From positions 6,279-70,278 of the forward strand of contig CALHTB010000021.1 in NCBI GenBank assembly GCA_938038785.1: a DNA stretch of 64,000 nt. Reading direction: 5' to 3'. A program made the translations under genes and the position numbers. The notes beneath the pieces are model-generated. The model had not been told where the DNA came from, searched no databases, and worked only from the letters and a program-made list of their open reading frames with translations. Shown piece after piece: positions 39,860 through 51,359 of this stretch. This DNA is from an uncultured Acidimicrobiales bacterium (GTDB taxonomy: Bacteria > Actinomycetota > Acidimicrobiia > Acidimicrobiales > SHLQ01). Numbering within the stretch: position 1 is the first letter of the stretch; each line of letters begins with the position of its first letter.

Positions 39860-41284
39860 TGTGTCGAGCGCTCTCCTGGCGGCACCTGCGCCGGCCATGC
39901 CATGGACACCTCCGCCGGGCGCGGCACTTGCGCTGGCGATGAACATCGTCGGGTCGGGCGTCGAATACAGGTTGGCCTGCGGTCGTGGACGCAGGAAGAG
40001 CTGGAGCCCACCATGGCTTCCTCCGCCGACATCTCCACCCACCAAGTTCGCGTTCTGTTGCTCGAGTGTTGGCGTGAGCGAAACGTGCGTGGCCCGAATG
40101 ACATCGCGGACGCCGGGAGCGAATCGCTCGATCTGTTGAATGATCGCCTCGGACTGATCAACTGTCGATCCGTTGGGAACGTGGCAATACGCCCAGGCGG
40201 TGTGGCTTCCCGACGGAGCTCGAGTTGGGTCGAACATGGTGTGTTGTGCGAGTAGGACGAACGGCTTGGCTGGGTGGCCACCGTCAGCCACCTCCTGCTC
40301 GGCAGCAACGACCTCATCGAGGGTGCCGCCGAGATGCACAGTTCCCGCTTCGGCAATGCTCGGGTTTGTCCAAGGAATCGGACCGTCGAGGGCGAGGTCG
40401 ACCTTGCATGCACCAGGTCCGTAGCGGAAGTTCGCCAGACCCTCCCGGTATTTGGGAGCAAAGTGATCTCCGGTGATGCGCAAGATTTGTCTCGGCGTGA
40501 GCGCAAACAGCGTGGCTTTGGCATTGGGGATATCGGACAACGACTCGACACGCTCGTTGGTTCTGATCTCACCGCCGAGGCTCGTCAGCAACGACACCAT
40601 CGCATCGATGATCGATTGTGCCCCGCGTTCGGGAAAACCCCAGCCTCCACAATGGACTAGTGAGCCCAACAGCAATCCGAACGACGTCGTTAGCGGTGAT
40701 GTCAGCGGCAGGATCGAATGGGCGGCGTGCCCGGCGAACAAGCTTTGCGCTTCGTCGGTGTTCCAGACCCGACGGGCAGTCGTGGCTGCGGGAAGCGCCG
40801 ACACCGCGCCGAAGCGGGCAGCGAACAGCGGGCGCTTTGGCACTCGGAGCACCGGGTTCAACGAGAGGTCGATGAGGTCGTCGATGGACGCGATCCAGTG
40901 TTCGTAGAAGCGGCGGTAGGCCTCGCCGTCAGCGCCTAGTTCGGCGACGGTTCGATCGAGGTCGTTCCACGCAACCCCCGCCCGGCCCCCGTCTAGTGGG
41001 TGCGCTGCAGCCGCGGGAGGTACTACCCATTGAAGGCCGTGAGCTTCGAGCTCGGAGAAGAGCGGCGCGAAGAATGGTGACGCCTTGACCATCGGGTGAA
41101 TCGCCGAACCCATGTCGTGAATGAACCCCGGTTCGGTGAGCTCGGCCGAACGCGCTGCACCGCCGATCGTGTCGTTAGCCTCCAACACCACAACCGAGCG
41201 CCCCGCCTTGGCCAGCGTGATCGCAGCAGCCAGGCCGTTGGGCCCCGAACCGATAATGACGGCATCGGTCGAGGTCGGTGACAT
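39848..41284 (-). CDS. Phytoene-desaturase-family NAD(P)/FAD-dependent oxidoreductase (COG1233-like)
   Basis: DAVIIGSGPNGLAAAITLAKAGRSVVVLEANDTIGGAARS dinucleotide fold. About 480 aa with a conserved C-terminal GGGVHGMAG block. Confidence 0.8.
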   Translation of the reverse strand: MSPTSTDAVIIGSGPNGLAAAITLAKAGRSVVVLEANDTIGGAARSAELTEPGFIHDMGSAIHPMVKASPFFAPLFSELEAHGLQWVVPPAAAAHPLDGGRAGVAWNDLDRTVAELGADGEAYRRFYEHWIASIDDLIDLSLNPVLRVPKRPLFAARFGAVSALPAATTARRVWNTDEAQSLFAGHAAHSILPLTSPLTTSFGLLLGSLVHCGGWGFPERGAQSIIDAMVSLLTSLGGEIRTNERVESLSDIPNAKATLFALTPRQILRITGDHFAPKYREGLANFRYGPGACKVDLALDGPIPWTNPSIAEAGTVHLGGTLDEVVAAEQEVADGGHPAKPFVLLAQHTMFDPTRAPSGSHTAWAYCHVPNGSTVDQSEAIIQQIERFAPGVRDVIRATHVSLTPTLEQQNANLVGGDVGGGSHGGLQLFLRPRPQANLYSTPDPTMFIASASAAPGGGVHGMAGAGAARRALDTALS

Positions 41285-43767: not shown

Positions 43768-44538
43768 TCAGACCTCTGGAAGCAATGCGTTGGCTCGCTC
43801 TGTGACGAGCGCGAGCAGTTCGTCGGCTAGCCGTGGGCGCTGCTGCGGATTGAGCCGATATGCCGGGCCGAAGAGGCTGACGGTTGCGACCAGTTCTTCG
43901 TTGCGAACTAGCGGAACCGCCAATCCGTTGACGCCAACGTCGAGCTCCTGATCGGTCCAGCAGTATCCGTCGGTGCGAATCTTGGCCACGCGCTTCTTCA
44001 GTCGGGCCGGGGTCGTCATCGAGTGTTCGGTCGATGCGTCGAGTTGATGGAGTAGTGATTCTCTGAGACGGTCAGCCGGCCACCACGCCATGGTCACAAG
44101 TCCGGGAGCTACGAGATGAAAGCGATGGCGCTCGCCGGTGACATCGGGAACGGATACGGCGTGTTCGGCCGACACCTGCGACAGGTAGAGCAACGCATCG
44201 CCATCGTCGACCGAGAGCGCAGCATTCTCGTCGAAGGTCTGAACTAGCTCAGCGAGCAGCGGGCGTAGCTGGTCTCCAATCATGGGTTCGGCGCCGGTGT
44301 CGGGCTGCAGTGTGGCGAGCGCGCTCCCTGCGATGACCGACCCGTCGCTGGTGCGAGCGACCATGCCGAGCTGCGTGAGCGTGCCGATGAGCCTGCTGAC
44401 CGTAGAGCGCGGCAGGCCGCTACGACGCCCGAGCTCTCGAACACCGAGGGACTCTTGCGCGGCGACGACAATCTGCAGGAGGCGAAACGCCCGCTCGATG
44501 GGGCTCTCTCCTATTGACGTGTTGTCGGTCACAGCCAT
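43768..44538 (-). CDS. IclR-family transcriptional regulator
   Basis: SPIERAFRLLQIVVAAQESLGVRELGRRSGLPRSTVSRLIGTLTQLGMV HTH plus an effector domain. Start at ATG 44538, because the longer track ORF overlaps the divergent gene. Confidence 0.85.
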   Translation of the reverse strand: MAVTDNTSIGESPIERAFRLLQIVVAAQESLGVRELGRRSGLPRSTVSRLIGTLTQLGMVARTSDGSVIAGSALATLQPDTGAEPMIGDQLRPLLAELVQTFDENAALSVDDGDALLYLSQVSAEHAVSVPDVTGERHRFHLVAPGLVTMAWWPADRLRESLLHQLDASTEHSMTTPARLKKRVAKIRTDGYCWTDQELDVGVNGLAVPLVRNEELVATVSLFGPAYRLNPQQRPRLADELLALVTERANALLPEV

Positions 44539-44562
44539 ACACTTAATCCTACTGAACAGGAC

Positions 44563-44579
44563 GTCCCATTCAACGGGAC
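44563..44579. promoter_or_regulatory. Palindrome in the IclR / gamma-butyrobetaine operon divergent region
   Basis: GTCCC-attcaac-GGGAC within the 79-bp intergenic region. Confidence 0.25.
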
Positions 44580-44617
44580 ACTTGGGAATCTGCTCACCGA
44601 ACACAAGTGGGGTCTCC

Positions 44618-45826
44618 ATGGCCATCGTTGAACATGGCGAACACCAGCTGCCACCAACTCCCGACTTCTACGAGTATCCGTGGACGCCGATCGAGTCGGT
44701 GTCGGTCGACGGTCGGTTCGTAGTTGTTCGGTGGGCTGACGGTGTTGAGCTCGAGGCATTCGACTGGTGGTTGCTCGAGAATGTGGTCGACCGTGGTTTT
44801 GATCTGGCGACGCGTGAACAGCTGATCGATCCGGCTGCGCTTACCAACGATGTCGCCGTCGAGTCCGCTGTCGTCGTCGACGATGGTGCACTACAAGTCA
44901 CCTTCACCGGATCGACACCGGCGACGTTTCACCCGGGGTGGCTTCGCCATGTCGCCGACGACCAGCACCTAGCCCAAAGCTGGCTTCCCGAGCCGACGAG
45001 CTGGACTCCCGCCACGTTCACCGAACCGCCAACGCACGACGGCTCGGTGGTGCTCGATGACGATGCGACGTTCGGCGCGTGGCTCGACGACCTCGTTCGC
45101 TATGGCATTGCCCGCCTCCGTGGATGCCCAACCGACGAAGGTTTCAACGCGGTACTCGCCGGGAAAATCGGGGCCGTGCGCGACACGAATTTTGGTCCGT
45201 TCTGGGATGTGAAGGCTGACGTCGAGATGGCCGGTTCGGCCGACACGAACTCGACGGCCAACACCAACCTCCGCTTAGGCCCCCATACCGATCTCCCCAC
45301 CCGGGAGACGCCGCCGGGCTTTCAATTTCTTCATTGTGTTGTGAACGAAGCCGGGGGTGGCTTCTCGACAATGGCCGACGGTGCCGCGGTCGTCGATGCT
45401 CTGCGCGAACAGCACCCCGAACACTACGAGGCGTTGACCACTCTCAACTGGGTGTTCTTTAACCGAGGTCCAGGCATTGACCATCGGTGGTCGGGTCCGT
45501 TCATTGACCACGGTGTCGCCAACGCCCCGCTCACGCTTCGCGCCTTCTATCCCGTCCGGGCCTTCCCCGACATGGCGCCTGCCGACCAACCGCGTGCGTA
45601 CGAAGCAATGCGGTGCTTTAGCCAGATGGCCGACAGTGCTCGCTTCAAAATCGCGTACCCGTTCAAGCCCGGAGACCTCGTCGGCTTCGACAACCGACGT
45701 ATTCTGCACGGGCGAGATGCCTTTGAATCGGGTGGTCGGCGCCACCTCCGGGGCATGTATATCGATCAGGACGAAATCCGCTCGACGGGCCGAGTTATTA
45801 ACCGGCGACTAGCCAACCAGATCTAA
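44618..45826 (+). CDS. Gamma-butyrobetaine hydroxylase / trimethyllysine dioxygenase family (DUF971 + TauD-fold) Fe(II)/2OG oxygenase
   Basis: N-terminal VSVDGRFVVVRWADGVELEAFDWWLLEN (DUF971-like). LRLGPHTDLPTRETPPGFQFLHCV (HxD plus the QxLHC block characteristic of BBOX/TMLH). ATG at 44618. Confidence 0.75.
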   Translation: MAIVEHGEHQLPPTPDFYEYPWTPIESVSVDGRFVVVRWADGVELEAFDWWLLENVVDRGFDLATREQLIDPAALTNDVAVESAVVVDDGALQVTFTGSTPATFHPGWLRHVADDQHLAQSWLPEPTSWTPATFTEPPTHDGSVVLDDDATFGAWLDDLVRYGIARLRGCPTDEGFNAVLAGKIGAVRDTNFGPFWDVKADVEMAGSADTNSTANTNLRLGPHTDLPTRETPPGFQFLHCVVNEAGGGFSTMADGAAVVDALREQHPEHYEALTTLNWVFFNRGPGIDHRWSGPFIDHGVANAPLTLRAFYPVRAFPDMAPADQPRAYEAMRCFSQMADSARFKIAYPFKPGDLVGFDNRRILHGRDAFESGGRRHLRGMYIDQDEIRSTGRVINRRLANQI

Positions 45827-45841
45827 GGAAAGTAGATACCA

Positions 45842-46738
45842 ATGACAATCCATGATGGTGTATTCATCACCTGCGCCGTGACCGGCGGCGGTGCGACCAC
45901 GGCCAAGTCCGACAAGGTTCCGATCACCCCCGAGGAGATCGCCGACGCGTGCATCGAGGCCGCAAAGGCCGGAGCTGCGATCACCCACGTGCACGTTCGC
46001 GAAGACAACGGCGCGCCCTCACGAGACATTGGCAAGTACGCCGAGGTAGTGGAGCGTGTTCGCGAGAGTGACACCGACGTCGTGTTGAACCTCACTGCGG
46101 GCATGGGCGGCGACATCGTGCTCGGTGGTGTCGAAACCCCCTTGCCTCCAGCCGAGGATGGCACCGACATGGTGGGTGCAACCGAACGGGTCGAGCACGT
46201 CCGCCAGCTCAAGCCCGAAATCTGCACGCTCGACTGCGGCACGATGAACTTCGGTGAGGGCGACTACATCATGACGAACACGCCTAGTCAGCTCGAAGAG
46301 ATGGCCAAGCAAATGACCGAGATCGGCACCCGCATCGAGATCGAAGCCTTCGACACCGGCCACTTGGCCCACGCCAAGAGCCTGGTGTCGCGCGGCATCA
46401 TCCCGAACCCGGTCATGGTGCAGCTGTGCATGGGCATCCCATGGGGTGCGCCCGACGACCTCAACACGTTTATGGCGATGCGCAACAACATCCCCGACGA
46501 CTGGACCTTCTCGGCGTTCAGCATCAGCCGCAACCAGCTCAAGTATGTGTCGCTCGCGGCCATGGCCGGGGGCAACGTACGCGTCGGCCTTGAAGACAAC
46601 ATCTACCTCGACCGTGGCGTGCTCGCCACCAACGGCGACCTCGTCGAGCGCGCGGTCACCATTCTCGAAGCGCAGAACTACAACCTGCTGACGCCGCAGC
46701 AGGTTCGCGAGAACCTCGACCTTACGAAGCATGGCTGA
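45842..46738 (+). CDS. BKACE family (3-keto-5-aminohexanoate cleavage enzyme-like; dehydrocarnitine cleavage enzyme candidate)
   Basis: FITCAVTGGGATTAKSDKVPITPEEIADACIEAAKAGAAITHVHVRE is the typical DUF849/BKACE N-terminus. 298 aa. Confidence 0.85.
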   Translation: MTIHDGVFITCAVTGGGATTAKSDKVPITPEEIADACIEAAKAGAAITHVHVREDNGAPSRDIGKYAEVVERVRESDTDVVLNLTAGMGGDIVLGGVETPLPPAEDGTDMVGATERVEHVRQLKPEICTLDCGTMNFGEGDYIMTNTPSQLEEMAKQMTEIGTRIEIEAFDTGHLAHAKSLVSRGIIPNPVMVQLCMGIPWGAPDDLNTFMAMRNNIPDDWTFSAFSISRNQLKYVSLAAMAGGNVRVGLEDNIYLDRGVLATNGDLVERAVTILEAQNYNLLTPQQVRENLDLTKHG

Positions 46739-46743
46739 TCAAC

Positions 46744-47775
46744 ATGAGTGACCTTGAAGACGAGTCAGCAGAGCAGTCCGAGCGAAGCGAATCTGCGATT
46801 GCGAGAGTGACAGTAGAGCGTGCCGCTGTCGTTGGTTGCGGTGTGATCGGTGCTGCGTGGGCCAGCCGAATGCTGCTCAACGGCGTCGACGTCGCCATTA
46901 GCGACCCGTCTGAGAACGCCGAGCAGATCCTCACCGAGGTTCTGGCCAACGCAGTTGCCGCGTACGACGACCTCGGCCTGCCGACCAATCGCCAAGGCAC
47001 CTACCGGATGGCGATGTCGGTTGCTGACGCCGTCACCGACGCGCAGTTCATCCAAGAGAGCGTTCCCGAACGGCCCGACATCAAAGCCGCGGTCCTGGCC
47101 GAGATCGAGGCGGCCGCGCCGGTCGACACGATCATCGGGTCGTCCACCTCGGGCATCAAGCCATCGACCATGCAGGCAACAATGACCAACCCTGAGCGGC
47201 TCGTGGTCGGCCATCCATACAACCCGGTGTACCTGCTGCCGGTGGTCGAGGTCGTCGGTGGCGAACACACTCCCATCGAGGTCATTCGCAAGGCGCAAGG
47301 CATCTATGCGGGCATCGGCATGAAGCCCGTGCACGTGCGCGTTGAGATCGACGCCTTTGTCGGCGACCGCCTGCTCGAAGCCGTGTGGCGCGAGGCGCTA
47401 TGGCTCGTCAATGACGGTGTGGCGACCACCCAAGAGATCGACGACATCATGACCCACGGCTTCGGTCTGCGATGGGCACAGATGGGCTTGTTCGAGACGT
47501 ATCGGGTTGCTGGCGGCGCGGGCGGGTTCCGTCACTTCATCGAACAGTTCGGCCCGACGCTCGAATGGCCGTGGACCAAGCTGATGGATACGCCCGACTT
47601 CACCCCCGAGCTGGTCGACACGCTCGTCGAGCAGAGCGACGCGCAGTCCGGTGAGCACACGATCCGCGAGCTCGAACGAACCCGCGATCAGAACGTTGTC
47701 GGCTTTCTGAAGGTTCTCGAAGCAAACAACTGGGGCGCCGGCACCACAATCGCGGAGCACCGAAACGCCACCTGA
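46744..47775 (+). CDS. L-carnitine dehydrogenase-like 3-hydroxyacyl-CoA dehydrogenase family protein
   Basis: AAVVGCGVIGAAWASRMLLNGVDVAISDPSENAEQILTEVLANA closely resembles the LcdH/CdhA N-terminus as I recall it. C-terminal HAD dimerisation domain. Confidence 0.75.
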   Translation: MSDLEDESAEQSERSESAIARVTVERAAVVGCGVIGAAWASRMLLNGVDVAISDPSENAEQILTEVLANAVAAYDDLGLPTNRQGTYRMAMSVADAVTDAQFIQESVPERPDIKAAVLAEIEAAAPVDTIIGSSTSGIKPSTMQATMTNPERLVVGHPYNPVYLLPVVEVVGGEHTPIEVIRKAQGIYAGIGMKPVHVRVEIDAFVGDRLLEAVWREALWLVNDGVATTQEIDDIMTHGFGLRWAQMGLFETYRVAGGAGGFRHFIEQFGPTLEWPWTKLMDTPDFTPELVDTLVEQSDAQSGEHTIRELERTRDQNVVGFLKVLEANNWGAGTTIAEHRNAT

Positions 47776-47867: not shown

Positions 47868-48239
47868 ATGAGGCGCAAGGAGACGCTGGCCGAACGACGT
47901 ATCCGTGAGGCCCGCGAACGCGGCTTGTTCGACGGCCTCGAAGGGACCGGCGAACCCATCTCGGATCTGCACATTGAGCGTCCTGCGGGCTGGTGGGCCA
48001 ACCGGCTGCTCAAAACCGAGCGCAGCAAGCTGAAGCGTTCGAACCTCGACCATACGATTCAGTCATCGATGGCTCAGATCTGGCGTTTGCCGAGCGAACT
48101 GGAGGTTCGCAAGCGGGTTGTCGAACTGAATGCGCTGATCCGCGACTACAACGTGGTCACCAATCTCGACCCACGGGATCTCCTTGATGCGACTGAAGTC
48201 GTTGCCACCTGGCGGCGTCTTGGTCTGGCCGGCACGTAG
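47868..48239 (+). CDS. DUF1992 (DnaJC28-like) protein
   Basis: AERRIREARERGLFDGLEGTGEPI signature. Confidence 0.7.
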   Translation: MRRKETLAERRIREARERGLFDGLEGTGEPISDLHIERPAGWWANRLLKTERSKLKRSNLDHTIQSSMAQIWRLPSELEVRKRVVELNALIRDYNVVTNLDPRDLLDATEVVATWRRLGLAGT

Positions 48240-48281
48240 ACCGCCCGCTCACGTCTTGACTTATCCTGTTCACTCTCGGGC

Positions 48282-48310
48282 AGGTTGGCCGTCGAGCAAA
48301 AGGCCAACCT
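48282..48310 (+). terminator. Perfect 9-bp stem hairpin after the DUF1992 gene
   Basis: AGGTTGGCC (48282-48290) pairs with GGCCAACCT (48302-48310) around an 11-nt loop. Weak T content downstream. Confidence 0.45.
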
Positions 48311-48337
48311 CTATTCGCCAGCGAGTCTCGCAACTTT

Positions 48338-48580
48338 GTGATGACACGGTGGATGGCCGCGGTTGCACTGTTCGCCGTCGGAGGCATCGTTCGGACGTTT
48401 CTTCGGGGCCCCATTGGAGATGCCTTGGACATTGCCGAAGTCGGCCTCAGTCCTGATGACGACTTCGATCTCTTTGTCTTCGATCTGCCGTTCGGCGTTC
48501 TGATCTTCGGGTCGTTGATTTTGGGATGGGTGATGAATCAGGGCGCTGCCGTCCAGGCCCAGACCGAGGACATCGTCTAG
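48338..48580 (+). CDS. Small two-TM membrane protein
   Basis: 80 aa. WMAAVALFAVGGIV and LPFGVLIFGSLILGWV helices. Stop overlaps the GTG of the next gene (TAGTG). Confidence 0.45.
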   Translation: MMTRWMAAVALFAVGGIVRTFLRGPIGDALDIAEVGLSPDDDFDLFVFDLPFGVLIFGSLILGWVMNQGAAVQAQTEDIV

Positions 48581-49050
48581 TGCCACCTGAGTCGGTTCCG
48601 GGATGGATCGTGGTTCATCTCGATGCACTACTGCGCGAGCGGAATATGACCGCGACCGAGCTCGCCGAGCGCATCGGCATCACTCAGGCGAACGTGTCGA
48701 TCTTGAAGACAGGCAAGGCCAAAGCAATACGGTTCACGACCCTCATGGCGATCTGTGACGTGCTCAGCTGTCAGCCCGGCGACCTTCTGTCGTTCGAACG
48801 TGATGGGTCGTCCAGTCCCCAAGACGGTTCGGCTCGCGTCGGCGGTGGAGGCGTGAAGTTACTCGATTCAGGAGATCGACCTGTCGCCGTCATCAAGGTA
48901 ATGAGGCAGCTCGGAGGTCTCGGACTACGAGAAGCAAAGGAGCTGGTCGAGGGGGCTCCTTGTGTTGTCTTGACCGGAATGGAGAAGGCCGACGCGTACT
49001 CGGCCATGGTGAAGTTGCGCTCGGCTGGCGCCACGGTGGAGCCGATGTAA
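48580..49050 (+). CDS. YozG-like XRE-family HTH regulator fused to a ribosomal protein L7/L12 C-terminal-like domain
   Basis: IVVHLDALLRERNMTATELAERIGITQANVSILKTGKAKAIRFTTLMAICDVLSCQPGDLLSFE is near-collinear with B. subtilis YozG. After a Gly/Ser linker, PVAVIKVMRQLGGLGLREAKELVEGAPCVVLTGMEKADAYSAMVKLRSAGATVE parallels the L7/L12 CTD ([26 protein letters not shown]...AEALKKALEEAGAEVE). Confidence 0.65.
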   Translation: MPPESVPGWIVVHLDALLRERNMTATELAERIGITQANVSILKTGKAKAIRFTTLMAICDVLSCQPGDLLSFERDGSSSPQDGSARVGGGGVKLLDSGDRPVAVIKVMRQLGGLGLREAKELVEGAPCVVLTGMEKADAYSAMVKLRSAGATVEPM

Positions 49051-49131: not shown

Positions 49132-50418
49132 ATGTTCAGCAGAAATACAGCTCAATCATCGAAAGTGGTAGCCCTTCTTTCAGCACTGGCAATGGTGGTT
49201 GCTCTACTCGCTACGGCTGCGCCAGCGGGGGCTCAAGACAACCCGTTGGAAGGTCTGGAGGAGTTTGGGTGCGAGTGGACGTCGGTTGTGGAGAATCGGC
49301 CGATTCGGTACGTGCAACCTGGGCAGACGTTTCGCGGTACCCCGGGCCGAGACATCATTGTCGGCACATCGGGAAATGACCGGATCATCGGACGCTCCGG
49401 AGATGATGTGATCTGTGGACGAGGTGGCAACGACACCATCAGCGGGGGTGACGGCGACGATCGCCTGCTCGGTGGCGGTGGTAACGACTTCCTTAGCGGC
49501 GGTGCCGGAGGCGACCACATCTTTGGCCGAACAGGCCACGACACCATCCGAGGCGGAGACGGAAGCGACACGATTGGGGGCGACGGAGGCTGGGACAAGC
49601 TGTTCGGCGAAAATGGCGATGACGACATCACCGGTGAGGCTGGCAACGACACCATTGAAGGTGGTTCAGGCAACGATGACATCATTGCGGGATCGGGCAA
49701 TGACACTGTGCGCGGAGGCACCGGCAACGACAGGATGGACGGCGGCGAGGGCAACGATTCTCTAGCAGGTGGTAGCGGCACCGACCGGGCCAACGGGGGT
49801 CCCGGCATCGATACGTGCAAGGCCGAGCGAGGGCTGAATGGGGAACCGCGCCCGACAAACTGTGAAGCGGCGAACGCCCAACAGTCCACCAGCACTCAAT
49901 CTCAGCAACCAACCTCGTCAGGCGTTCGCTTGGCAAAGCATCCGAACGCATCTGATGCCCACATGATTTATCCAGGTCAAGGAGTGCGTCGCTGGGTCGA
50001 CGCCAGCTGTCTCGGTCAGATTTACCAGGCACAGCTGCCGGTTGGGTCGTTCCAGAATTGGAACACCGAGGTGGCTATCTACTCGGCGAGCAACACAAAG
50101 TCATGCGGCGAGTACAAGGCAGACCTTGGCGGCTCATCGAGCAATTCACCAACGCCAAGCCAACCGTCGAACCCAAGCACGCCGAGCCAGCCGTCTGGCA
50201 GTGTCGGCGAGTTCGCGGCGGTTGCCGGAGACAATCATGAGGCGTGGATCTTGATGTCGGACGGCACCCGTCACTGGATCAACCAGTCGTGTCGCAATCA
50301 GCTCACCGCTGCGCTGGGAGCGCCGCGATACGTGTCCTACAACGCCGAGTTGCGTAACCGCTCCGACACCCCGGGCAGCAATCGTCTCAGCTGCGGCCAA
50401 TTGCAGGCACAGCTGTAA
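49132..50418 (+). CDS. Secreted calcium-binding RTX-repeat (hemolysin-type nonapeptide) protein with a duplicated Cys-containing C-terminal module
   Basis: AAAGGAG RBS. Sec signal MFSRNTAQSSKVVALLSALAMVVALLATAAPAGAQD. About 18 consecutive GxxGxDxxx nonapeptides. Two related roughly 60-aa modules (RRWVDASC...SCGEY and RHWINQSC...SCGQL) separated by a Ser/Pro linker. Confidence 0.8.
   Translation: MFSRNTAQSSKVVALLSALAMVVALLATAAPAGAQDNPLEGLEEFGCEWTSVVENRPIRYVQPGQTFRGTPGRDIIVGTSGNDRIIGRSGDDVICGRGGNDTISGGDGDDRLLGGGGNDFLSGGAGGDHIFGRTGHDTIRGGDGSDTIGGDGGWDKLFGENGDDDITGEAGNDTIEGGSGNDDIIAGSGNDTVRGGTGNDRMDGGEGNDSLAGGSGTDRANGGPGIDTCKAERGLNGEPRPTNCEAANAQQSTSTQSQQPTSSGVRLAKHPNASDAHMIYPGQGVRRWVDASCLGQIYQAQLPVGSFQNWNTEVAIYSASNTKSCGEYKADLGGSSSNSPTPSQPSNPSTPSQPSGSVGEFAAVAGDNHEAWILMSDGTRHWINQSCRNQLTAALGAPRYVSYNAELRNRSDTPGSNRLSCGQLQAQL
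49336..49821 (+). repeat. About 18 tandem 27-bp coding repeats (RTX nonapeptides)
   Basis: GTPGRDIIV GTSGNDRII GRSGDDVIC GRGGNDTIS GGDGDDRLL ... GGPGIDTCK read directly from the translation. Confidence 0.85.
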
Positions 50419-50561: not shown

Positions 50562-51359
50562 ATGCGATCTCCGGGACTTCCTGCACTCCTCACCGCCCTT
50601 GCGCTGCTCGCAGCCGCATGTTCGGCGACTTCCAACTCCGAATCCACCAGCGAGACGTCCGATCCCGAAACTACCGAGGCGCCAGCTGCGACCGTTCCAG
50701 CGACACCGCCTGCAATCGAAGCTGGTGGTACCGCCGTGGGCTTAGTCGAGATCGATGGCACCGAGATCGAGTACGTCACTTCGGTTCCCGCTGGATTCAG
50801 CATTGGCGACGAGGCGCCACTGCTACTCGCCTTCCCACCCGGAGGTCAAGATCTCAGGCTCACCCAATCGCTCGTTGAAGGAACCTACGCCCCCGAAGCC
50901 CAACGCCTCGGATGGGTCGTGGTGAGCCCAGCTGCCCCCGCCGGCGTGAAGTACTTCGATGGCAGCGAAGCGCTCGTGCCAGGCCTTCTCGACTGGGTCG
51001 AGACCTGGATCGCGCCCGAAGGCGGCGCTCCTCATGTCGCTGGCGTGAGCAACGGTGGCATCAGCTCGTTCCGGTACGCCGCGCAGAACCCCAATCGAGT
51101 TCGGTCGGTCATCAGCTTCCCCGGTTTCCCGCGATCATCGGGCGATCAAGAAGCACTTGCCGACCTGGTGGGTGTGCCGATCCGCATGTACGTCGGCGAG
51201 TCCGACACCAGCTGGATCCCGCCTGCCGAAGAGGCAGTTGCCTCCTTCACCGAAGCCGGCGGCGACATCGAACTCACCATCTTCCCGGGCGAAGGCCACG
51301 TGATGGCGTCGACCCGCGACGGCACGCTCATCTTTGAACAGCTCGAGTTGTTCCGCTAA
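50562..51359 (+). CDS. Lipoprotein alpha/beta hydrolase (esterase / PHB-depolymerase-like)
   Basis: Lipobox LLAAAC in MRSPGLPALLTALALLAAACSAT. GVSNGG nucleophile elbow. Confidence 0.7.
   Translation: MRSPGLPALLTALALLAAACSATSNSESTSETSDPETTEAPAATVPATPPAIEAGGTAVGLVEIDGTEIEYVTSVPAGFSIGDEAPLLLAFPPGGQDLRLTQSLVEGTYAPEAQRLGWVVVSPAAPAGVKYFDGSEALVPGLLDWVETWIAPEGGAPHVAGVSNGGISSFRYAAQNPNRVRSVISFPGFPRSSGDQEALADLVGVPIRMYVGESDTSWIPPAEEAVASFTEAGGDIELTIFPGEGHVMASTRDGTLIFEQLELFR

Follow-up and report, generated by a model that had tools for sequence, protein, structure and literature searches.

What would a DNA-binding protein do with a domain of the ribosomal stalk? This question is raised by a gene at 48580-49050 on the plus strand of a stretch of contig CALHTB010000021.1, which comes from an uncultured Acidimicrobiales bacterium; the whole stretch analyzed, 64,000 nucleotides, is called the window here. 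The C-terminal domain (CTD) of the ribosomal protein bL12 (L7/L12) is the universal bacterial "fishing hook" for the translational GTPases and has been studied almost solely on the ribosome. An earlier note on this DNA, made from the letters alone, described the gene product as a YozG-type helix-turn-helix (HTH) repressor with an L7/L12 CTD behind a Gly/Ser linker, saw a gene for a small membrane protein in front of it, and suggested that it could couple transcription to the availability of translational GTPases. The analysis presented here confirms that the protein is a Cro/C1-type (YozG-like) repressor carrying a genuine bL12 CTD on a flexible hinge. What the CTD binds is weighed below.

A YozG-like repressor with a bL12 C-terminal domain

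The region to which the earlier note referred, 48338-49050 on the plus strand, consists of two overlapping open reading frames (ORFs), the second of which is the fusion gene. Its elements are the following:

48580-49050, plus strand: fusion gene, 156 amino acids, made up of a YozG-type HTH repressor, a hinge and a bL12 CTD (Pfam, family alignment and structural model)
48566-48570, plus strand: Shine-Dalgarno sequence GAGGA of the fusion gene, 9 nt 5' of GTG 48580, inside the conserved E-D-I-V codons of the preceding membrane partner gene
48616-48804, plus strand: HTH_26 (Cro/C1, YozG/VanU-type) DNA-binding domain, residues 13-75 (Pfam, E 7.1e-24)
48805-48852, plus strand: flexible Gly/Ser/Ala-rich hinge, residues 76-91
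48853-49041, plus strand: bL12 (L7/L12) CTD, residues 92-154, beta-alpha-alpha-beta-alpha-beta topology (Pfam PF00542)

Both domain assignments of the earlier note were borne out by profile searches. The HTH_26 match reached 84 bits and covered the full length of the model (positions 1-63 of 63), and the match to Ribosomal_L12 (PF00542) scored 64 bits against a gathering cut-off of 25.9 (E 1.6e-17, model positions 3-65 of 67). The linker was also recovered: residues 77-88 are rich in Gly, Ser and Ala, and their predicted local distance difference test (pLDDT) score lies below 50. Across the family the hinge varies in length and sequence and is the fastest-evolving segment. An AlphaFold2 model built from a 22-sequence family alignment consists of two independent domains (predicted template modelling score, pTM, 0.45), with a pLDDT of 86-92 in the CTD. 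Structure prediction had been named as a check, and in a Foldseek search of the PDB the modelled CTD was superimposed best on the E. coli L7/L12 CTD, 1ctf (template modelling (TM) score 0.93, root-mean-square deviation 1.0 Å, 46% identity); further matches were bL12 of M. tuberculosis and bL12 in ribosome structures. The N-terminal half matched VanUg (3tyr) and CylR2 (2xiu/1utx). In a sequence search of the PDB, bL12 was matched at E 3e-11. Taken by itself, the CTD shares 53-63% identity with genuine bL12 proteins.

The fusion protein is not the product of rplL, since it has neither the N-terminal stalk-anchor domain nor ribosomal neighbours. The bL12 N-terminal dimerisation and uL10-binding domain, PF16320, gave no Pfam match in the protein, and the whole-bL12 equivalog TIGR00855 (NCBIfam) scored 57.7 against a cut-off of 84.4, with only model positions 61-123 matched. 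All genuine bL12 matches of a search with the CTD alone carry PF16320 together with PF00542; this search was run on a word-indexed database, returned genuine bL12 only and did not recover the fusion family. The fusion gene is surrounded by genes for IclR, TauD, BKACE, 3-hydroxyacyl-CoA dehydrogenase (3HCDH), a DJC28_CD protein and an RTX-repeat protein, and not by rplJL-rpoBC or rplKAJL-rpoBC. When the window was searched by tblastn with five bL12 proteins, only 48805-49041 was matched and no genuine rplL was found. As no other L12-like sequence is present in the window, the genuine rplL must lie elsewhere in the genome, a point that the earlier note had named for confirmation.

The fusion gene starts with GTG 48580 and ends with TAA 49048-49050. 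The ORF list gives it as 48526-49050 (plus strand), from ATG 48526. GTG 48580 is assigned as the true start because ten family proteins (that of the window and those of nine related loci) align there with the common N-terminus (M/V)P..GW(I/V)VVHLD, because this GTG shares one base with the stop codon TAG 48578-48580 of the upstream ORF (TAGTG), and because GAGGA is suitably placed as its Shine-Dalgarno sequence. The stop codon of the upstream gene abuts or overlaps the fusion start in other loci as well. The public gene call P0001 (134 amino acids, ATG 48646) is too short: it misses 48580-48645, that is, the first 22 residues, which include strand 1 and helix 1 of HTH_26. The relatives P0007, P0008, P0014 and P0015 are likewise called from an internal ATG in the public annotation.

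A frameshift or an assembly artefact joining two genes had been named by the earlier note as a possible refutation. That the fusion is such an artefact (frameshift, misassembly or two genes read as one) or a dead remnant is highly improbable, even though the window locus is damaged, with the operator and half of the partner gene deleted, and the partner gene decays in two related loci, L081 and L094 (see below). Both Pfam domains are found in a single ORF in 20 independent homologous clusters (P0002-P0021; 51-73% identity, 147-161 amino acids), all of metagenomic origin and one of them also in NCBI. The window sequence is present in marine metagenome runs, where contig X1 covers the whole stretch and contig X3, from a different run, covers 48606-48889; both span the HTH-CTD junction, and X3 crosses it without indels. 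The proportion of non-synonymous differences (pN) is well below that of synonymous differences (pS) in both domains: pN is 0.13-0.35 vs a pS of 0.45-0.80 in the CTD, and the ratio of non-synonymous to synonymous substitution rates (dN/dS) is 0.04-0.15 in the HTH domain; for the least saturated pair, dN/dS is 0.20 (CTD) and 0.07 (HTH). The CTD is under purifying selection. By the 20 clusters, the independent contigs and the selection, the artefact reading is excluded. The window copy itself departs from the conserved sites at 0 of 44 positions in the HTH domain and at 2 of 19 in the CTD, both conservatively, and with its ORF intact and conserved it is unlikely to be a dead remnant.

In an exhaustive profile search of 1.84 billion representatives (clusters at 50% identity), the fusion was represented by two full-length sequences (P0021, P0008) and one fragment, and the architecture is therefore very rare. 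A contig scan with a pattern inside the HTH domain led to 80 loci, which are plain YozG genes without the fusion. They served as the canonical comparison set; the pattern covered the HTH domain only, so that the scan is uninformative on the absence of the fusion from cultured genomes. The earlier note knew of no characterized example, and the literature searched on YozG, PF00542 and bL12 moonlighting describes no HTH-bL12 CTD fusion and characterizes none. The fusion is thus conserved in a small lineage and uncharacterized.

The operon in related loci and the deletion in the window

Nine related loci were compared (L081, L084, L086, L088, L090, L091, L092, L094 and L095). In seven of these (L084, L086, L088, L090, L091, L092 and L095) an ORF of ~200 amino acids, here called the partner, directly precedes the fusion gene. 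The full-length partners have four hydrophobic segments and a conserved acidic tail, ...GW.W.RG..LQ.D.EDIV (QxDxEDIV). Neither they nor the window ORF matched Pfam DUF2975 (PF11188), even at E values up to 10; the window ORF of 80 amino acids matched no Pfam or NCBIfam family, and a profile search with the full-length partners returned eight metagenomic matches, all without Pfam domains. In cultured genomes, the genes preceding plain YozG-type HTH genes match DUF2975 with 28-142 bits, and their products end in ...REDLEGTV or ...ENELTV, resembling the tail of the fusion partners. When the fusion partners were compared with the canonical YozG partners by hhalign, the two profiles aligned with 83.6% probability (E 8e-6), in register to the last residue. 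The partner would thus be a distant relative of DUF2975/YoaS, to which it is linked by profile-profile comparison only. On the strength of this match, the similar tails and the presence of DUF2975 in the canonical partners, the operon appears to be of a divergent YoaS-YozG type. The conservation of the tail may be partly due to the Shine-Dalgarno sequence and start codon of the fusion gene, which lie in the same bases.

Each of the nine loci contains exactly one copy of a 35-bp AT-rich palindrome, CATATCGAAAAACGAT-N3-ATCGTTTTTCGATATG. Copies lie at the following positions:

L088, 5361-5395
L090, 5313-5347
L084, 4376-4406
L081, 4553-4631
L092, 1836-1870
L094, ~2213-2247
L095, ~2083-2117

The match extends over 27-30 of 30 positions in L081, L084, L088 and L090, and the copies in L094 and L095 are similar by eye; L086, L091 and L092 have variant palindromes. 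With 31% GC, the palindrome stands out within DNA of ~60% GC, and its last ATG is the start codon of the partner. The layout in L088 is TTGACC-17 nt-TATCGT-8 nt-ATG, which places the promoter wholly under the palindrome, and on this layout the operon promoter is apparently leaderless; the promoters look like the actinobacterial leaderless type, in DNA of about 61% GC. Read as two ATCG-N5-CGAT sites, the palindrome would offer room for two HTH dimers. Since it is near-identical across loci whose synonymous sites are saturated, it is the putative operator of the repressor, and we infer that the repressor very probably binds it.

The corresponding part of the window contains these features:

48256-48265, plus strand: relic of the promoter/operator, consisting of the -35 box TTGACT (48256-48261) and the initial four bases, TATC, of the left arm of the palindrome (comparison with L094)
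48260-48580, plus strand: 5'-truncated partner remnant, 106 in-frame codons and a stop codon (BLASTP against the L090 partner)
48338-48580, plus strand: ORF of 80 amino acids described in the earlier note, with two predicted transmembrane helices, read from the first canonical start codon, GTG 48338; its translation is putative

At the promoter/operator, the closest relative, L094, reads TTGACTTATCGAAAAACAATGTTATTGTTTTTCGATATG (longer extract TTGACTTATCGAAAAACAATG...). The window reads TTGACTTATC (48256-48265) and continues directly with about codon 97 of the partner, the deletion junction lying after 48265. The translation of 48260-48577 is 54% identical to residues 100-202 of the L090 partner (BLASTP, E 1e-37). 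It comprises the end of transmembrane helix 2 (TM2), the PLF loop, TM3, the DDDF loop, TM4 and the acidic tail ...QTEDIV, leaving two hydrophobic segments vs four in the full-length partners. The homology to the partner begins 26 codons before GTG 48338, and the window has therefore undergone a deletion of ~300 bp, which joined the -35 box of the partner to about partner codon 97. In the promoter region, the -10 box and most of the operator are gone; of the partner gene, the first ~96 codons are missing, including the start codon and the parts for TM1, the external loop and most of TM2. The small membrane-protein gene of the earlier note therefore stands as an upstream, overlapping ORF with two hydrophobic segments, but not as a native gene: it encodes the last two helices of a partner of ~200 amino acids.

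No palindrome was found anywhere in the window, where the best match (17 of 30 positions) is at background level, and a promoter scan found no sigma-70 consensus upstream of the remnant, which fits the loss of the -10 box. An Rfam search of the window gave no match. Short operator-like matches at 40604 and 55370 lie in GC-rich coding sequence and were set aside as chance. A perfect 9-nt inverted repeat, AGGTTGGCC-N11-GGCCAACCT, at 48282-48310 (plus strand), within the frame of the remnant and 5' of GTG 48338, was rejected as an operator because of its place in this frame, the lack of a T-run and the lack of conservation in L094.

Partner genes are also damaged in L081 (4547-4935), where an internal deletion has degraded the gene and the ~80-100 codons that remain are not in frame with its ancestral ATG, and in L094 (2245-2669), where it is frameshifted and TM4 and the tail are lost. 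The damages in the window, L081 and L094 are independent of each other, and the fusion gene is intact in all three loci.

The CTD surface and its possible ligands

The best overall explanation, which we put forward tentatively and at somewhat less than even chances, is that the protein is a YozG-like autorepressor whose CTD acts as a tethered binder of translational GTPases. The operon would encode first a four-helix membrane protein of ~200 amino acids and second the repressor, whose start overlaps or abuts the partner stop. As a dimer or a pair of dimers on the palindrome, the repressor would most likely shut off its own operon, and the membrane partner would most likely modulate the repressor. 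With the CTD on its ~15-residue hinge, the protein would copy bL12 in its order of anchor, hinge and CTD, except that it would be anchored to DNA and not to uL10. Through its ancestral helix 4/5 face it would bind translational GTPases (EF-G, EF-Tu, IF2, RF3), whereby the occupancy or activity of the repressor would depend on the state of the translation apparatus. The window copy, if active, would be transcribed by read-through and act on sites elsewhere.

According to a review, the bL12 CTD is the common interaction site of IF2, EF-Tu, EF-G, RF3 and LepA, and the E. coli residues V66-V68, K70, L80 and E82 have been reported to contact EF-G (PMC5887453). For comparison, 21 fusion CTDs were aligned with 117 genuine bL12 CTDs, and the E. 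coli numbering was checked against PDB 3j7z. At the V66-V68, K70, L80 and E82 positions the window CTD has V, A, V, K, L and E. Conservation among the fusion CTDs is as follows:

position 66: Ile or Val, 21/21
position 68: Val, 21/21
position 69: Ile or Val, 21/21
position 70: Lys, 21/21
position 73: Arg, 21/21
position 80: Leu, 20/21
position 81: Lys or Arg, 20/21
position 84: Lys, 19/21
position 91: Pro, 21/21

Over region 64-88, identity to the bL12 consensus is 64% and the net charge is +1.0 vs +1.3 in genuine bL12. Judged by these residues, the face of helices 4 and 5 at which bL12 touches EF-G, EF-Tu and IF2 is largely retained in the fusion CTD. Binding of one or more translational GTPases by the CTD is the preferred reading, though less probable than not.

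Several observations weigh against GTPase binding and against the circuit proposed above. Only 13/21 fusion CTDs have E82, and most of the 21 have Pro in place of K65, a residue that never varies in genuine bL12. Identity to the bL12 consensus drops to only 30% in region 95-113, whose charge has changed from -1.8 to +0.7. On the helix 6 face, K107 is replaced by Met or Leu (21/21), K108 by Val or Ala and E111 by Arg (20/21), and E96, K100, E112 and K120 are replaced as well, so that a new interface appears to have evolved on the face around helix 6. Free EF-Tu is very abundant and the affinities of the isolated CTD for the factors are weak, and a simple sensor of factor availability is thus not obviously workable. 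In the window, the deletion of the operator would leave the fusion gene unable to autoregulate in cis, so that the autoregulatory circuit could not operate there. Finally, a retained helix 4/5 signature says little by itself about GTPase binding: tandem-CTD proteins of more than 100 clusters, some of which look secreted, have it as well, and it may be needed for the fold or for another shared partner.

These tandem-CTD proteins make up most of the best matches of the profile search mentioned above. They consist of 2-9 tandem bL12 CTDs, range from about 140 to >1000 amino acids and fall into >100 clusters at 50% identity (among P0248-P0393). P0248 has 692 amino acids and 8 matched stretches, P0252 has 1056 amino acids and 9 stretches, and P0251 combines six CTD copies with LRV/HEAT repeats; P0249 (WP_346660302.1, Nannocystis pusilla, 593 amino acids, 7 copies) is named only "ribosomal protein L7/L12". 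Some tandem-CTD proteins start with signal-peptide-like sequences. The copies inspected keep the K.xVIKxVR...AP signature, and the strict pattern occurs in 51/115 proteins. No study of them was found in the literature searched. A bL12 CTD outside the ribosome is therefore not unique to the fusion protein: it is the fusion architecture that is very rare, and the reuse of the CTD off the ribosome is wider than the earlier note assumed. A separate capture from rplL is suggested for the fusion, because the window CTD is closer to genuine bL12 proteins (57-62% identity) than to the tandem-repeat CTDs (43-54%).

Both the tandem-CTD proteins and the altered helix 6 face bear on a different explanation, namely that the CTD is a generic module for protein-protein contacts or oligomerisation, bridging operator-bound dimers or holding another cytoplasmic ligand or partner, and that its resemblance to bL12 reflects origin and fold. 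The family-wide remodelling of helix 6 (K107, K108, E111) with its flipped charge, the likeness of the operator to two adjacent dimer sites and the >100 non-ribosomal clusters with the same signature, some of them signal-peptide-like, speak in favour of such a module. However, K70, R73 and K84 on the surface hardly vary or do not vary at all, although pairs of CTDs differ by up to 66% of their amino acids, which argues for a function on that face, and the AlphaFold model (pTM 0.45, disordered hinge) is without interdomain contact. We regard a generic module as rather unlikely.

The operon layout suggests another ligand. The CTD could be a docking site for the DUF2975-like partner, whose cytoplasmic loops or acidic tail would sequester the repressor or set it free. 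Partner and fusion gene are strictly adjacent and translationally coupled in most loci, the conserved tail QxDxEDIV could fit the basic helix 4/5 face, and in the CylR1/CylR2 model a small HTH repressor is likewise controlled by a membrane protein. Yet a similar acidic tail is present in the DUF2975 partners of canonical YozG proteins, which work without any CTD, and the partner has been broken independently in the window, L081 and L094 while the CTD stayed intact and conserved; moreover, the conservation of the tail is partly explained by the overlapping Shine-Dalgarno sequence and start codon. Docking of the partner is therefore improbable as the role of the CTD.

The close similarity of the CTD sequence to genuine bL12 would also suit a decoy or sensor for attackers of the stalk, for instance toxins, phage proteins or nucleases that dock on bL12; the attack would be reported to the transcriptional switch. 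The bL12 CTD is a known dock of non-factor proteins, and 8phj, "cA4-bound Cami1 in complex with 70S ribosome", is among the fold matches. There are, however, no defence or phage genes around any of the loci, PADLOC and PHROGs gave generic HTH matches only, and the neighbours are catabolic (TauD, BKACE, 3HCDH, IclR). A decoy of this kind is very improbable.

The preferred reading, an autorepressor with a tethered GTPase binder, can be taken further to a DNA-anchored mimic of the ribosomal stalk, which we consider a long shot. One or two dimers on the double ATCG-N5-CGAT operator would display 2-4 CTDs, as on the bacterial ribosome. With similarly small probability, these CTDs would catch IF2, EF-Tu or EF-G right where a leaderless mRNA has its promoter and its start codon. 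Accumulating free factors could then titrate the repressor off the DNA, or the factors together with 70S ribosomes could be passed to the nascent leaderless transcript. If this were true, transcription of the operon would be physically coupled to the state of translation.

Neighbouring genes and comparison with known systems

The genes on either side of the operon in the window are:

43768-47775: divergent IclR gene, followed by TauD-family dioxygenase, BKACE and 3-hydroxyacyl-CoA-dehydrogenase-family genes (family matches)
47868-48239, plus strand: ORF of 123 amino acids lying between 3HCDH and the promoter relic, matched to DJC28_CD (DnaJ-C28 conserved domain) at E 7e-10
49132-50418, plus strand: gene for an RTX-repeat protein of 428 amino acids, seven RTX calcium-binding nonapeptide matches, E 3.7e-36

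By their family names, the IclR, TauD, BKACE and 3HCDH genes look like a catabolic cluster of the carnitine or gamma-butyrobetaine type. L081, L088 and L090 have the TauD-BKACE-3HCDH trio in synteny upstream of their fusion operons, and in L092 and L095 a 3HCDH gene likewise lies upstream. The DJC28_CD gene is not present at the corresponding place in related loci. A gene for 144 amino acids at the same place in L092 was considered as a member of its family and proved unrelated; the DJC28_CD gene is hence taken as a local insertion. It may supply read-through transcription to the fusion gene; a search for RNA-seq runs yielded none. The RTX-repeat protein has a signal-peptide-like N-terminus and linkers rich in Ser, Pro and Gln. 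Its gene is inserted between the fusion gene and a conserved gene for 265 amino acids (50562-51359), which in L081 lies directly 3' of the fusion gene.

As a precedent for a protein of the L12 family that acts in transcription off the ribosome, only free mitochondrial MRPL12, which binds POLRMT, was found in the literature searched. There, a whole ribosomal protein moonlights on a phage-type polymerase in a eukaryotic organelle, whereas the fusion protein contains a fused domain and gives no hint of contact with RNA polymerase. The tandem-CTD proteins resemble the fusion protein in using the bL12 CTD off the ribosome with its helix 4/5 signature kept. Unlike it, they lack an HTH domain and have 2-9 copies in a row, in some cases together with LRV/HEAT repeats or a signal-peptide-like N-terminus.

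With bL12 itself, the fusion protein shares the sequence (46-62% identity) and fold (TM score 0.93) of the CTD, the factor-contact residues of helices 4 and 5 and the layout of anchor, flexible hinge and CTD. In contrast to bL12, it lacks PF16320 and the rplJL-rpoBC context, its helix 6 face is remodelled, and its CTD is neutral to basic instead of acidic. It therefore stands outside the bL12 ribosomal protein family, though it contains that family's CTD.

The cytolysin operon of Enterococcus faecalis encodes CylR1/CylR2, a phosphorelay-free two-protein switch made up of a small membrane protein and a Cro/C1-type HTH repressor of ~66 amino acids; how CylR1 acts on CylR2 is unresolved. CylR2 is among the best structural matches of the fusion HTH domain (TMt 0.88-0.89). 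However, no more than 14-16% of the residues are identical, CylR1 is a three-helix protein outside DUF2975, and CylR2 lacks an extra domain.

The closest known system is YoaS-YozG, represented by yoaS/yozG of B. subtilis and relatives across phyla. YoaS-YozG operons are widespread and preceded by inverted repeats as putative operators (2026 preprint). In the literature searched, DUF2975 is rarely mentioned and, apart from this preprint, has received no functional treatment. The fusion protein has a full-length HTH_26 domain with up to 80% local identity to plain YozG-type proteins of 85 amino acids. Its gene lies downstream of, and overlaps, a multi-pass membrane protein gene with an acidic ...E-x-x-V tail, and a putative inverted-repeat operator is found at the operon promoter in the loci of the family, although it is deleted in the window. 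The differences lie in the extra bL12 CTD of 65 amino acids, whereas plain YozG proteins are single-domain proteins of about 85 amino acids (the longer ones inspected look like read-through junk), and in the partner, which falls below any Pfam threshold for DUF2975 and is connected to it through the profile-profile comparison only.

Overall, the fusion repressor is a natural experiment on whether a bL12 CTD can signal translation status to DNA-bound regulators. It also provides a first handle on the widespread, uncharacterized YoaS-YozG (DUF2975-HTH) operons, as operator, promoter and partner are unusually well defined in the fusion family. Taken with the tandem-CTD proteins, it makes the bL12 CTD look like a mobile module for protein interactions, the non-ribosomal biology of which is apparently unexplored in the literature searched. 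Should the CTD be only a structural add-on, no more than a rare case of domain shuffling within a single marine lineage would remain of the finding. Its HTH domain and the layout of its operon would place the fusion gene with the YoaS-YozG family, and what is new in its lineage is the addition of a bL12 CTD to a repressor of this type.

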